From Promethearchaeota archaeon (GTDB lineage: Archaea > Asgardarchaeota > Lokiarchaeia > Sigyniarchaeales > SOKP01): a DNA stretch of 44,622 nucleotides. Both the position numbers and the translations under genes were made by a program. The stretch lies in NCBI GenBank assembly GCA_019058015.1, contig JAHLWH010000104.1, positions 1 to 44,622 of the forward strand, in the 5' to 3' direction. The notes under the pieces are model-generated. The model made no database searches and was not told the DNA's origin. It worked only from the letters and a program-made list of their open reading frames with translations. This document shows, piece after piece, positions 35,155 to 39,413 of this stretch. Position 1 is the first letter of the stretch; each line of letters begins with the position of its first letter.

Positions 35155-36432
35155 TTAATTATTAGATTCATTAATCAAATAGCCGATACAAATCTTTAGT
35201 GCATTTGTGAGTGCAATCTTATTTACTATTTCTATATTATCTGTGGGTTGATGATAGAAAGACAAAAATTTGCTGAAATCCATTGATGCAAAAGTTGCTG
35301 CCTTAATTTTAACTTTAGAAAATGCAGTTGCGTCAGTTCCCCCACTAATTTGTCCTATAAGTTTCTCTATAAAACCAGAACCAAATGGTTTAATATTAAG
35401 ATCAACCAGATCAGCGGATTTATTTATTTTTTGCACTACTTCTGGTGAATGTCTCGTTCTTGTTGTAGGTTCATATTCTATTATATAAAATTTTTCATCA
35501 CTCTGAATGCCGTCCATGTTTATTATTTCTGCATTTCTTTTTTTTAATTCTTCAAAATGACGTGCTACATAGCGATAAGCACCCCTTAAGCCAGCTTCCT
35601 CGCATCCAAATGAGATTAAACGAATTTCTGTGTTATTAGGAATAATTTGTTTATGAATTTTAAGATATTTTCCGAGACCTAATATAACAGCAACAGCACT
35701 AAGATTATCAATAGCTCCTGGTACTTTATTCGCTTTTTCGCCACTTGATACGAAAAGAAATAACCCAATAAAAGCAGGGATGCCAATTATAAAGAGAATA
35801 ACTGTAAAATTATAAAATAACGCATATTCCAAGTTAAAAAATATTATGATAAATATAATTATTGAAACTATTATCCATATAAACAATACACTCAATCCCA
35901 AAAAAATAATAATTACATACCCAAACTTTAAATATCGTAAAAGGTTAAATTGTAGAGCACTATCGAGGTGTCCTGAAAAAATAATAATTTTTTTAAATTC
36001 TCCTTTTGCTTTAATCTTTCCTACGACGTTTTGCGAATCCTTTTCTTTAAATAATTTATCTATAAACTCTCGATAATTAAAAAATTCGTTCCAAAGTATC
36101 AAGAATGCAAAGATATTAAGAATCACAGCGATAGTAATTACTAATATACGTGAGAGCAAATTTGGTGCAATAAATGGCATTAATAAAAAGTTTAAAATTG
36201 AGATGCTAATTAGTAAAATGTCAATCCTTATCCACCCCAAAAAAGCCCGTGGGTGACACTTAAATGGTTCAACATTAACTTCATCACAAGTCTTTTCAAG
36301 TTCTTTTTTAATATAATCGGCTGCTTGTGCTTCTGCAGGACTACATGGCATTCTTGGTCCAAATTTATCTATAATATCTTTTATAACATTATACATATAT
36401 TCGGAATCATCATTTGAAATTTCAACTTTCAT
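35155..36432 (-). CDS. Membrane-embedded M28-family metallopeptidase
   Basis: GPR.PCS, GHLDS, GAIDNLS, GCEEAGLRG, GGTDA and YHQPTD motifs; 4 TM helices. Confidence 0.9.
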   Translation of the reverse strand: MKVEISNDDSEYMYNVIKDIIDKFGPRMPCSPAEAQAADYIKKELEKTCDEVNVEPFKCHPRAFLGWIRIDILLISISILNFLLMPFIAPNLLSRILVITIAVILNIFAFLILWNEFFNYREFIDKLFKEKDSQNVVGKIKAKGEFKKIIIFSGHLDSALQFNLLRYLKFGYVIIIFLGLSVLFIWIIVSIIIFIIIFFNLEYALFYNFTVILFIIGIPAFIGLFLFVSSGEKANKVPGAIDNLSAVAVILGLGKYLKIHKQIIPNNTEIRLISFGCEEAGLRGAYRYVARHFEELKKRNAEIINMDGIQSDEKFYIIEYEPTTRTRHSPEVVQKINKSADLVDLNIKPFGSGFIEKLIGQISGGTDATAFSKVKIKAATFASMDFSKFLSFYHQPTDNIEIVNKIALTNALKICIGYLINESNN

Positions 36433-36486
36433 TATTATCGCAATAATTATGACTATTAAAAGATAATTAGATTTTCTTTAATAAAA

Positions 36487-36494
36487 GAGTTTAA
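36487..36494 (+). repeat. Left copy of 8-bp target-site duplication GAGTTTAA
   Basis: Immediately outside the left TIR; identical to 37853-37860. Confidence 0.85.
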
Positions 36495-36517
36495 GGTTAT
36501 TTTTAATTTCCCTTGTT
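36495..36517 (+). repeat. Terminal inverted repeat at the tnpB 3' side, GGTTATTTTTAATTTCCCTTGTT
   Basis: Reverse complement matches 37830-37852 at 21/23, including 18 contiguous bases. Confidence 0.87.
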
Positions 36518-36650
36518 TTTAATTAAAATTTAATTCTATTTAACTATTTTTGCTATATAGCAATAGAATATGGGTGTAACCCCACACCCTCTATCCCATC
36601 CGCAGAAACTGCATTTGGGACTACTTTTTTAATTATATTATACCCTGCAT
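36495..36650 (-). ncRNA. Putative TnpB omegaRNA (reRNA) scaffold region; boundaries approximate
   Basis: GC-rich hairpin on minus strand ATAGA-GGGTGT-ggggtt-ACACCC-atat-TCTAT (36563-36594) overlapping the tnpB 3' end, where omegaRNAs are normally encoded. Confidence 0.5.
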
Positions 36651-37740
36651 TCACATCAGCATTGATAAGAATTCCTTTTTTGCTCTTAAAAAGACCTCTG
36701 TTTACTCGCCTTCCCATATATTTTTTATGCCTTTTGATGGGTTCCTTATCCAAAAAACTGCATTTGGAAGTAAAAGACTCCCCATCGATAATAATATCAA
36801 TACCAAATAATTCTGATTTATATTTAATTTGACTTATTAATTTAAAAAAAGGTATTTGAACGAACTTCTGATTATTAATCCTTCCAATGTTCACTTTCTG
36901 CTTCCATGCTCTATTATAACTGATTATTATTGTTCCGAAATTGTTTTCAATACAATAATTGATAACTTCTCTTGAAATCTTATGAAATATATCGTTTATT
37001 TTGTTGTTACGTTTTGCTGTAATCTTTTGCAATCTGTTAGTCTCAGACTTAATTCCTTGTTTATCCTTAATTGATTTTAATTCTGCAATTCTTTTATTAT
37101 AGAATTGATTTACGGATTTCACAATACTGCCTTTAATAATAGTGGGTTTTAACCCAACATTATTTACAATAGTTACAATATTGCTTATTCCTAAATCAAT
37201 TCCTATAAACCTATCCTTATTTAAATTTAAATTATCTATTTCTTTCAAATATATAATCTCTAAATTATAAAATAATCCTTTAGGAATTATTCTTACTTGA
37301 TGTAATTGGTTTCTTATTCTAGTTTTAATTGGAGATAAATTTACTTTTTCAGGAAAATGTAGATAACCATTTTTAATCCTACATTGTTGATTCGTGAAAA
37401 TAATAATAAACTCACCATTTTTCTTCTTATATTTCGGGGGCTTAGGCCTCCCTTGATATTTTTTTGGATGTTCCTTCCATTCTTTTATGGAATTAAAGAA
37501 TGATTTCCAATTCTTATCTAATAATTTTAATATTTGCTGGGCTGTTTGTGATGGCAATTTTTTATACGGTTCTTTGTCTTTTAATATAAACTATAAATCG
37601 TAATATCTCAACCAATTACCCAGATAAAAAAATTCTTGTCTAACATAATAATTTGCTAGATTATATAAATTCTTAGACAAATAACATAAACAAGAAAAAT
37701 CCCCCCTCTTCTTCATCTGTATTTGTTCAGTAAGCCTCAT
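36553..37740 (-). pseudogene. tnpB: RNA-guided endonuclease TnpB, 395 codons, interrupted by in-frame TAG at codon 50
   Basis: Reading from ATG 37740 gives MRLTEQIQ...SKNLYNLANYYVRQEFFYLGNWLRYYDL*FILKDKEPYKKLPSQTAQQ, in frame with the called ORF; TAG at 37591-37593; GIDLG, ESFTSKCS and INADVNAGYNI motifs. Confidence 0.88.
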
Positions 37741-37767
37741 TAGTATAAAATATAATATTTTTTCGTC

Positions 37768-37775
37768 TTTATAAA
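37768..37775 (-). promoter_or_regulatory. Candidate TATA box (TTTATAAA) for a leaderless tnpB transcript
   Basis: 28-35 bp upstream of ATG 37740 and inside the element; the AT-rich background weakens the call. Confidence 0.35.
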
Positions 37776-37829
37776 TAAAAAGAGAGCATAGATTTATCTT
37801 AAAATATATTCAAAAAAAATTTAATGAAT

Positions 37830-37852
37830 AACAAGGGAAATTAAAAAATACC
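37830..37852 (-). repeat. Terminal inverted repeat at the tnpB 5' side, AACAAGGGAAATTAAAAAATACC on + strand
   Basis: Inverted partner of 36495-36517. Confidence 0.87.
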
Positions 37853-37860
37853 GAGTTTAA
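37853..37860 (+). repeat. Right copy of 8-bp target-site duplication GAGTTTAA
   Basis: Immediately outside the right TIR; identical to 36487-36494. Confidence 0.85.
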
Positions 37861-37892: not shown

Positions 37893-39413
37893 CTAATTAA
37901 CAACATCTTTCAAAACAGGTTGAGTTGCTTCAACGAAAAGATGTTTGGAAGTATTAAGTGAACCATTGTATACAATCTTAGAGATCACCATTTCAGAAGG
38001 ATAATATTTTATTCCAGGAGGATATGAACTATCTTTCCAACCCCCTAAAGCTGTACTAATATTAGCCTGCATCGGTTCATTATTAATATATATGCTTCCT
38101 GCCTGCAATTCGTTGACAAATCTTTCAATATTTTCTGGAGGAGTGTACACTACAGCACGCATTCCATAGTTAGAATGATTTGCGAGAAAAATAGCATCAT
38201 CAATATTTTTAGCTTTAGTTACACTTCTTACGGGACCAAAAGCTTCTTCACGCCACAGAAAAGGAGCCTTATCAAAATCAAGTATATTTCCGCGAGGAAT
38301 CTCTACTAAAGTTGGTTTATAAAAAAGGCCATAGCTTTTCCCGGTATCCATTTTTTCAGCACCACATAAAATTTTTACACCCTTATGTTTTGTGGCTTCA
38401 CCAACCATTACTTCCATCATCATTAATATTCTCCGAGATCCAAGAGGTCCAATATCTGTGGACATATCTCTAGGGTCTCCCATCTTTAATTTTTCAATTC
38501 CTTTTAGCAATAATTCAATATATTCATCATATATATCCTGATGTACAATTATTCGCTTCATTGAAAAACATTGTTGTCCTGAATTTGTATAGGAAGCAAT
38601 TACATTCCATTTAGCCACTAATTCTAAATTTACTCCGGGCATTACGATTCCTGCATCATTTCCAGCACTTTCGAATATAAAATTTTTGAATGGAAAATTT
38701 ATCATATTAACTCCAAGAAACTTCTGGGTATGTTTTTTTAAAACTTCAGCGTAATCGATTAGAATCTGTTTTGCTGTATGCGAAGCGGCTACGCAAACAA
38801 TATTTTTAATTAATTTTGATTCAATAAATATTTTGGTTGCAAAGTTGCCAGGACTAATCACCAAATCATATGCTTCATTAAACGGAAAATCACTCTCATT
38901 AATTCTTTCTATACAATATTTCATTGTCAAGGGACAAGCTGTGGAAGGTTTTATAATAGCAGGGTTTCCTGTCATAAAGCTTGATCCCCAAAAGTACATT
39001 GGTAGACTCATAGGAGTATTACGGGGAGTTATACCTATAGTTAATCCCATAGGTTGATATTTTATATGTGAAACTTGTCCACTTTCAAGATCACGTTGTG
39101 TTCTGTCTTTTACCAAATCGATAAACCAGTCAACATAGGAATATCCCTTTTCAATCATAGCAAATTCCCATTCTGAATAGCGAATGGGTAATCCTCCTTC
39201 AGCAACTATGATATCTTTAATTTTTTTCTTTTCCTTTAGTAATACATCAGCTATATCTTTGATTACATCAATTCTTTCTTCTAATGTGGTGTTTAAGAGT
39301 TTTCTTTCCCACTGAACTGTTCTTCTAATCTTATTAAGAATTGTCTCTTCAGTGTCTGCTTCAATAGAGTCTATTACTTCCCCCGTATATTTATTTAAAA
39401 CATCTAATTTCAT
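37893..39413 (-). CDS. Aldehyde dehydrogenase family protein (divergent)
   Basis: ITPRNTP, GNPAIIKPS, FESAGND (general base), SGQQC (nucleophile), EEAFGPV and ANHSNYG motifs. Confidence 0.92.
   Translation of the reverse strand: MKLDVLNKYTGEVIDSIEADTEETILNKIRRTVQWERKLLNTTLEERIDVIKDIADVLLKEKKKIKDIIVAEGGLPIRYSEWEFAMIEKGYSYVDWFIDLVKDRTQRDLESGQVSHIKYQPMGLTIGITPRNTPMSLPMYFWGSSFMTGNPAIIKPSTACPLTMKYCIERINESDFPFNEAYDLVISPGNFATKIFIESKLIKNIVCVAASHTAKQILIDYAEVLKKHTQKFLGVNMINFPFKNFIFESAGNDAGIVMPGVNLELVAKWNVIASYTNSGQQCFSMKRIIVHQDIYDEYIELLLKGIEKLKMGDPRDMSTDIGPLGSRRILMMMEVMVGEATKHKGVKILCGAEKMDTGKSYGLFYKPTLVEIPRGNILDFDKAPFLWREEAFGPVRSVTKAKNIDDAIFLANHSNYGMRAVVYTPPENIERFVNELQAGSIYINNEPMQANISTALGGWKDSSYPPGIKYYPSEMVISKIVYNGSLNTSKHLFVEATQPVLKDVVN

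Follow-up and report, generated by a model that had tools for sequence, protein, structure and literature searches.

The window analysed here, 44,622 nucleotides of contig JAHLWH010000104.1 from a Promethearchaeota (Asgard) archaeon, contains a 1358-bp element that carries a gene for the nuclease TnpB and has the ends of a DDE-type transposon. Very probably, this element is a non-autonomous, tnpB-only transposon in which a cassette derived from IS607-type elements is enclosed in DDE-type ends and is moved by a DDE transposase acting in trans. It is a member of a family found mainly in one Promethearchaeota family. An earlier note on this DNA had proposed a non-autonomous, DDE-mobilised tnpB element, and this proposal is now supported by the family and by a partner transposon that has the same ends and makes 8-bp target site duplications (TSDs). 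The copy in the window was inserted long ago between genes for a peptidase and an aldehyde dehydrogenase, and its tnpB is now nonsense-mutated. The features of the element are listed below. Coordinates are positions in the window, and statements in the sense of tnpB refer to the minus strand. RE denotes the right end, which is the guide-RNA end on the 3' side of tnpB, and LE the opposite, left end.

36487 to 36494, no strand: RE-side copy of the TSD, GAGTTTAA, or TTAAACTC in the orientation of tnpB (direct reading and empty site)
36495 to 36517, minus strand: RE terminal inverted repeat (TIR), GGTTATTTTTAATTTCCCTTGTT reading inward, with the tnpB-sense terminus ...AAAAATAACC
36475 to 36621, minus strand: candidate omega RNA or right-end RNA (reRNA), consisting of a structured region (36533-36621), then the RE, then a presumed guide in the flank (36494 to about 36475)
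36593 to 36621, 36572 to 36589 and 36533 to 36569, minus strand: candidate reRNA stems predicted by RNAalifold
36553 to 37740, minus strand: tnpB, 395 codons, with one in-frame TAG at 37591-37593
37830 to 37852, plus strand: LE TIR, AACAAGGGAAATTAAAAAATACC on the plus strand, an inverted match to the RE at 21 of 23 positions
37853 to 37860, no strand: LE-side copy of the TSD, GAGTTTAA
37861 to 37863, minus strand: candidate target-adjacent motif (TAM), TAA on the plus strand, that is, TTA immediately 5' of the duplication in the orientation of tnpB

As read from the sequence, the element covers 36495-37852, its ends match as inverted repeats at 21 of 23 positions, and GAGTTTAA flanks it on both sides (36487-36494 and 37853-37860), exactly as the earlier note had described. 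The inverted similarity of the ends continues to 48 nt at 79%. Within the window, the TIR pattern occurs at just these two sites if up to three mismatches are allowed, against 0.00 expected from 100 shuffles. Identical 8-mers at the spacing of the element are rare: in the window they occur at 3 of 43,248 positions, and 2,000,000 random draws from the genome yielded 177 such pairs. The sole long open reading frame (ORF) within the element is tnpB on the minus strand, no tnpA is present inside, and the stop codon of tnpB is located 58 nt from the RE tip. The statement of the earlier note that tnpB is the only gene inside was thus correct, although it had missed the in-frame TAG that breaks this copy. 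Among 19 family members the final 20 nt of the RE are nearly invariant; the LE tips differ between copies (GA, GT, GG, TA or CA), with the core being retained.

The 8-bp duplication is real, because alleles lacking the element hold a single 8-mer. The insertion lies between two flanking genes:

35155 to 36432, minus strand: M28 peptidase gene (Pfam Peptidase_M28, 84.5 bits), its start codon 55 bp from the duplication
37893 to 39413, minus strand: aldehyde dehydrogenase gene (Pfam Aldedh, 266 bits)

In two genomes of the same genus (G004 and G001) these genes are separated only by intergenic DNA, which contains one GAGTTTAA in G004 (G004:C12:93473-93480) and one GAGTTCA variant of the 8-mer in G001. 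A 2567-nt contig (depth 48) from the cold-seep metagenome run X10 joins 36486 to 37853. The 1366 bases skipped there equal the element plus one 8-mer, with 8 letters being ambiguous between the two sides, and run X5 contains a weak joint of the same kind. Hence, the empty allele with a single 8-mer that the earlier note had named as a check is present in both genomes, in G001 as a variant, and in the X10 contig. The window's own assembly (G000; 3.84 Mb in 283 contigs, 94% complete, 29% G+C, stated contamination 3.4%) contains two further full copies, on contigs C64 and C267, each exactly 1358 bp long and with an intact tnpB. They are 92% (C64) and 89% (C267) identical to the window copy and colinear with it to the very tips, and their flanks are unrelated. 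Two partial copies at contig ends and two solo ends also occur in this assembly. The synonymous divergence among the three full copies (dS 0.3-0.5), together with the failure to find a transposase in the G000 assembly, suggests that in this genome the family is at present immobile.

Genome surveys further illuminated the extent of the family. A scan for the exact 18-nt terminus in one genome per species returned 78 loci, about half of them in metagenome-assembled genomes (MAGs) with the title Promethearchaeota archaeon or uncultured archaeon; the others are bacterial chance matches. Where a carrier of the element is named, its title is Promethearchaeota archaeon, in line with the Asgard host that had been guessed from the letters alone. 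With at most one mismatch, the 19-nt core was detected in 82 of 151 genomes of the order, including 77 of 131 in one family (f1) and 4 of 19 in other families. Eighteen complete tnpB elements were recovered; two of them (L121 and L131) have a degenerate left end and the other 16 have both TIRs, which match each other at 18-21 of 23 positions. Ten of these 16 two-ended elements have TSDs of 8/8, two of 7/8 and four of 4/8 or fewer. The ten perfect TSDs all differ in sequence; two required a shift of the LE boundary by 1-2 nt. Short derivatives without tnpB are flanked by duplications as well (836 bp, 7/8; 779 bp, 8/8; 172 bp, 8/8; 125 bp, 7/8). Both further tnpB copies with the same ends and different TSDs and tnpB-free derivatives of 125 to 836 bp, which the earlier note had suggested looking for, therefore exist. 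As the element has the TIR core and the TSD length of an autonomous element and no transposase gene, it resembles a miniature inverted-repeat transposable element (MITE). Two metagenome contigs have gaps inside tnpB, of 89 nt (run X6, 36960-37050) and 66 nt (run X10, 37432-37499). They may represent internally deleted natural copies, a weak observation given that the shorter side of each joint has fewer than 30 letters.

The autonomous partner was found in related genomes. In three of them (G117, G009 and G089) many contigs end about 50-200 nt inside a high-copy element with the tip GATAATTTTTAATTT(A/C)CCTTCAT, and behind this tip follow a leader and an ORF other than tnpB. The complete copy of this DDE element (L235:562-2054, genome G010) spans 1493 bp, is bounded by the TIRs GATAATTTTTAAATTCCCTTCAC and GATAATTTTTAATTTCCCTTCAT (21/23) and contains an ORF of 420 amino acids (L235:708-1967). 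The predicted protein matches Pfam DDE_Tnp_IS240 (PF13610) with 36.2 bits (cut-off 27). Among the NCBIfam models, it scores 42 bits against transpos_IS6 (cut-off 125) and 38 bits against the IS1 model (cut-off 100), and an IS1/IS1595 zinc-finger model is matched weakly, below its cut-off. Residues D139, D197 and E359 do not vary among 16 homologues, K366 is almost as constant, and a basic insert of about 140 residues is located between the second D and the E. Homologues of this transposase form 76 clusters, mostly on contigs of 1.4-2 kb, and those with names are called DDE-type transposases of Promethearchaeota, Helarchaeota or Lokiarchaeota MAGs. A scan of metagenome contigs with the transposase gave one locus, which ends at the contig edge. 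In G089, six left-tip and six right-tip contig ends pair one-to-one by identical 8-mers, so that six of six are perfect 8-bp duplications. The TIR core of the DDE element is identical to that of the tnpB element at 19 of 19 positions, the RE of the window element matches the DDE end GATAATTTTTAATTTCCCTTCAT at 19 of 23 positions, and both elements are present in G117. An autonomous DDE element with the same TIR, as the earlier note had envisaged, thus exists in related genomes. A decayed remnant of the partner transposase was identified in G004 (G004:C10:600992-601400, L237) as two pieces with 40-50% identity and three stops; the partner was therefore once present in the genus of the window. 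About 20 nt past the TIR, the right end of the tnpB elements also resembles the right end of the DDE element (L092, L132, L235; about 13/16 by eye), which is not the case for the left ends. This likeness may be due to chance in AT-rich DNA.

These data can be combined in the following model. A tnpB gene and its 3' guide-RNA scaffold, of IS607-type descent, would now reside between ends that match a separate insertion sequence of 1.5 kb. The IS6/IS1-like DDE transposase of the latter, supplied in trans, would bind the shared ends, cut an AT-rich target with an 8-bp stagger and join the element to it, and gap repair would then create the 8-bp duplication. The RE may be a compromise that unites the repeat core associated with the transposase with the ...ATAACC tip of IS607-type relatives, which probably is the 3' end of the guide scaffold.

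Several observations do not fit easily with this model. A tblastn search of G000 with the 420-residue transposase yielded spurious matches only. Forty of 71 clusters of repeated ORFs from a self-BLAST of G000 were compared with Pfam and contained no transposase, 16 being without a family, and a search of G000 for inverted 18-nt termini (at most 4 mismatches, 60-6000 bp apart) recovered the tnpB copies only. The absence of the transposase from an assembly in 283 contigs that is 94% complete weighs little, however. The lone complete DDE copy in G010 lacks a TSD (3/8), as do four of the 16 two-ended tnpB elements (C64, C267, L138 and L251). The RE tip of the tnpB elements (GGTTA) differs from the tip of the DDE element (GATAA) at two of five positions, the LE tips vary, and no single element was seen to bear both tnpB and the transposase gene. 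Mobilisation in trans is suggested by the shared ends, the equal duplication length and the co-occurrence of both elements in G117. An alternative mobiliser would be an IS607 serine recombinase (TnpA) encoded elsewhere in the genome. Indeed, an intact TnpA of 217 residues is encoded upstream of a tnpB paralogue on contig C45 of G000, and both the TnpB lineage and the right end ...ATAACC|T are shared with IS607-type elements. However, IS607 elements have neither TIRs nor TSDs and recombine at a dinucleotide (PMC6188088; PMC10711439), whereas the duplications found here are 8 bp long and of different sequence at every site, and the ends match those of a DDE element that makes duplications of the same length. 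Movement by TnpA is thus highly improbable. The earlier note had also considered an IS1341-type tnpB element inserted into a small pre-existing MITE. In such an explanation, a single tnpB element of the IS1341 or IS607 type would have landed there, and the TIRs would be irrelevant to the movement of tnpB. A landing of this kind may describe how the family began, a view that fits the change of the RE into the transposase-type repeat at about 35 nt from the tip (by eye). For the present element it can be dismissed as barely credible: all 16 complete copies, from many genomes, end at the TIR tips and have differing duplications, the homology among the three G000 copies stops exactly at these tips, and no internal boundaries of the IS607 or IS605 type are common to the element and to tnpB homologues outside TIRs. 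The Asgard Cas1 named in PMC10691335 was set aside as a mobiliser, since the data are accounted for by a DDE element whose ends are identical and whose duplications are equally long.

The elements without TSD are instructive with regard to the RE. At the C267 site, three relatives carry 24 nt in place of the element. The C64 site (G000:C64:6217-7574) has three alleles, namely the tnpB element in G000, a segment of about 715 bp in G001 (L064), and neither of them in G004 (L062). The DNA lost beside the RE thus comprises the second copy of the duplication plus 24 nt at C267, and the second copy plus about 715 nt at C64. IS26 is known for deletions that start right at one of its ends. The 715-bp segment of G001 is unrelated and resembles part of a gene on the other strand; the site marks a small variable spot.

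The protein encoded by the cassette has the architecture of a TnpB. It matches Pfam OrfB_IS605 (PF01385) with 71.8 bits and Cas12f1-like_TNB (PF07282) with 29.5 bits, and it reaches 168 bits against the NCBIfam model guided_TnpB (cut-off 100). With dN/dS values of 0.08-0.30 in nine pairs, tnpB is under purifying selection across the family. At the position of the TAG (37591-37593), the copies on C64 and C267 read TGT or TGG and most metagenome copies read TGG. The TAG is a stop private to the window copy. Read-through of this codon, including its use for pyrrolysine, was rejected because the paralogues and the metagenome copies read TGG or TGT. The motifs GIDLG (RuvC-I) and NADVN are present in TnpB. 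The canonical glutamate of RuvC-II is absent in 25 of 25 relatives, which have GYN in place of the E of Cas12f (G or S occupies the position itself). Directly ahead of what is left of the zinc finger, all 25 share an alternative glutamate in the context E-x-[FY]-TS-[KQR], which is a predicted catalytic site. The zinc finger itself is degenerate with a single Cys left, and the alternative glutamate is located 5 residues ahead of this Cys. A comparison of TnpB with solved structures gave distant Cas12f matches only.

A structured guide RNA is predicted to be encoded at the 3' end of tnpB and to reach the right end of the element. In an RNAalifold analysis of 19 sequences, which covered the final 230 nt up to the right end, seven of 21 predicted pairs show compensatory changes. 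By analogy with the model for TnpB of IS607 elements (PMC10711439), the guide would extend into the flanking DNA, and members of the family would presumably produce this RNA.

The closest relatives of the cassette point to its origin. Among the other TnpB paralogues of G000, the one on C45 (about 353-2500, L009) consists of a 425-residue tnpB with an intact IS607-type serine recombinase directly upstream, which has 217 residues and a MerR-like N-terminus. Two further paralogues belong to decayed IS607-type elements:

G000:C203:13433-16248 (L010): recombinase-gene remnants only
G000:C54:1-2250 (L005): recombinase-gene remnants only

No TIRs were found around the other tnpB paralogues of G000. 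The two recombinase-linked elements have in common an imperfect inverted repeat of 17 nt close to either end, and on the right they are 5 nt longer (TAACC). The right ends of IS607-type relatives terminate in ...GATAACC followed by T, and those of the TIR elements in ...AAATAACC followed by T; in four IS607-type relatives from G000, the T comes after ...AACC or ...AATC. In a maximum likelihood tree of 25 TnpBs, which has a midpoint root only, the 15 TnpBs with the RE of the family form one branch (support 90/91, 94% of bootstrap trees). This branch adjoins relatives without TIRs, and the recombinase-linked pair falls outside. The RE region is similar to the right end of the closest non-TIR relative until about 35 nt from the tip and then continues as the transposase-type repeat (by eye). 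From its sequence relationships, the TnpB cassette appears to descend from IS607-type elements.

A strict regularity marks the insertion sites. In the orientation of tnpB, 17 of 18 insertions have TTA immediately before the 5' side of the duplication (the remaining one has ATA), and the first duplicated base is T in all 18. TTA is part of the target DNA and not of the element, as it is present in the empty site of G004. The TTA|T pattern is not mirrored on the other side, where TAA follows the duplication in 3 of 14 cases (by eye), and TTAT occurs at 1.4% of genome positions. Flanks of the DDE element show TTA|T in 4 of 31 cases; the table had listed 33 rows, from which two misclassified ones were dropped, and Fisher's p = 6.5e-9 was computed on 4/33. 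In the four TSD-less elements, the left junction still shows TTA|T plus 8 nt, and the right end is still followed by T. Moreover, the DNA lost at C267 and C64 ends in TTA right before the new flank (at C267 in two of the three relatives' sequences). Thus, the RE was joined at TTA^T even in elements without TSD.

This pattern may reflect the activity of TnpB, with TTA being its TAM and T being the fixed first flank base of the guide scaffold, an assignment that has about an even chance of being right. Insertion or deletion alleles would then have been kept mainly if the new guide matched a competing allele bearing TTA just upstream, which TnpB would cut so that the element is copied in by homing or drive. 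The near-invariant TTA (17/18) and the invariant T (18/18) in one orientation relative to tnpB only, the lack of mirroring, the rarity of the pattern at the DDE element (4/31) and in the genome (TTAT at 1.4%), and the TTA that terminates the DNA lost on the RE side at C267 and C64 are all in line with this explanation. In G000, a T comes after the right end in the four IS607-type relatives as well, which agrees with the published IS607 guide-RNA scaffold, as this scaffold includes the right-flanking base (PMC10711439). However, TTA|T is a subset of the T-rich flanks that the DDE element prefers as well (TTA in 10 of 31 flanks), the drive requires several genome copies or gene flow, and the short derivatives do not separate the possibilities, as there are two elements only, one of 172 bp with TTA|T and one of 125 bp with CTA|T. 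Alternatively, TTA|T could result from the chemistry of transposition without any role of TnpB, if the altered RE tip (GGTTA for GATAA) made the transposase join at TTA^T. By the established geometry of DDE transposition, the attack by the 3' end of the RE falls precisely at the boundary of TTA and T. Repeated attacks by this end would fit the deletions beside the RE at C267 and C64, which also follow TTA, and the DDE element already leans to T-rich flanks. Yet the two ends of the DDE element itself show TTA|T at 4 of 31 flanks only, and a two-base change of the tip would have to create a four-base target preference, for which no precedent is known. We regard this chemical explanation as less likely and, on the sequence patterns described, favour TTA as a TAM. 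It is possible, with the balance tilting slightly the other way, that TnpB is more than passive cargo and either drives alleles whose guide lies beside TTA in a competitor or steers the transposase to TAM sites.

Two observations concern the G000 assembly as such. Many housekeeping genes are present twice on separate contigs with at least 80% DNA identity (genes for PCNA, Glu/Gln-tRNA synthetase, DHDPS, malate/lactate dehydrogenase and lysine aminomutase), which would fit strain mixing or contamination of the assembly. Repeated ORFs of 430, 837, 805 and 157 amino acids, with 4-5 copies each at DNA identities of at least 80%, have no Pfam family at E <= 1e-5 (C212:11782-13071, L164; C232:39-2549, L165; C212:3-2417, L167; C188:799-1269, L166). 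They could be mobile elements or gene families.

Associations of TnpB with DDE transposons have been reported before. Altae-Tran et al. (2023; PMC10691335) described six DDE-linked TnpB branches (DDE-1 to DDE-6), all with inverted terminal repeats, and also solo TnpBs whose ends match those of transposase-bearing elements and which apparently are moved in trans. The novelty that the earlier note had attached to a DDE-mobilised TnpB was therefore overstated. Like the systems in that paper, the element contains its TnpB inside an inverted-repeat transposon, with the 3' end of tnpB less than 250 bp (here 58 nt) from the transposon end, and in both cases a transposase recognising the same ends would move solo tnpB elements in trans. 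The DDE partners listed in a 2026 review (PMC13565253) are ISL2, IS630 and IS1031, whereas the partner found here appears to combine an IS6-type DDE domain (PF13610) with an IS1/IS1595-like zinc finger. Unlike in the published systems, the two genes were never seen in one element and the hosts are Promethearchaeota. In the literature covered, which for PMC10691335 was the text, no description of this family or of an IS6/IS1-like partner on a separate element in Promethearchaeota was found. The family is a new instance of a published kind, with a newly identified partner transposase.

The element also differs from the classical carriers of tnpB. TIRs and TSDs are both lacking from IS200/IS605 and IS607 elements (PMC6188088; PMC13565253). 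IS607-type elements of the same genomes share with the family a neighbouring TnpB clade and the ...ATAACC end followed by T, but possess a serine recombinase and lack TIRs and TSD, and the element reverses all three of these traits and is thus not an IS607 element. Nor does it belong to IS200/IS605, given its 21/23 TIRs and the 8-bp TSD, which is 7/8 or 8/8 in 12 of 16 complete elements. IS1341-type members of IS200/IS605 are similarly about 1.3 kb long, non-autonomous and with tnpB as sole gene, but they have hairpin ends without TIRs or TSD, and a Y1 transposase inserts them on the 3' side of a short, fixed motif. The partner resembles IS6 (IS26-like) and IS1 in its putative DDE domain of the IS240/IS6 type, which scores above the Pfam cut-off, in the 8-bp TSDs, and in short TIRs starting with G. 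Its length of 420 residues, the insert of about 140 residues and the NCBIfam scores far below the cut-offs make it a canonical member of neither. The non-autonomous Fanzor transposons of eukaryotes and their viruses, which have TIRs and TSDs (PMC3627910; PMC10711439), likewise are nuclease-only elements; their guide-RNA gene runs through the TIR into the flank, as predicted here, and the alternative glutamate arrangement is known from Fanzors and some IS607 TnpBs (PMC10711439). As in Fanzors, the putative catalytic glutamate of the present TnpB occupies an alternative position just before the zinc-finger region. However, the host is a prokaryote, RuvC-I reads GIDLG and not DPG as in Fanzors, and the alternative glutamate is 5 residues away from the Cys compared with 6 in the published pattern (PMC10711439). 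With its archaeal host and GIDLG motif the protein is not a Fanzor, the alternative glutamate being the sole common feature.

Cas12 and the eukaryotic Fanzors descend from TnpB, which has been proposed to restore the transposon once IS605 or IS607 transposases have excised it without a scar. According to the 2026 review (PMC13565253), this role fits DDE transposons poorly, and pairings of DDE transposons with TnpB are rare in prokaryotes. The family described here comes with dozens of natural insertion sites, with empty alleles and with a partner that can be identified and is of a type not among the listed ones. With these at hand, it is directly testable whether and how TnpB helps a transposon that makes duplications, and the strict, orientation-specific TTA|T provides a ready prediction for the TAM. 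The Asgard host and the Fanzor-like catalytic arrangement bear on the question of how nuclease-only elements with TIRs and TSDs arose; nothing here shows an ancestral link between this TnpB and Fanzors. If nuclease and transposase have indeed adapted to each other, the family would represent a natural archaeal case of such co-adaptation outside IS605 and IS607, with a chimeric end used by the transposase as well as by the guide RNA, and it would involve, in the archaeal group nearest to eukaryotes, a TnpB whose alternative glutamate is Fanzor-like.

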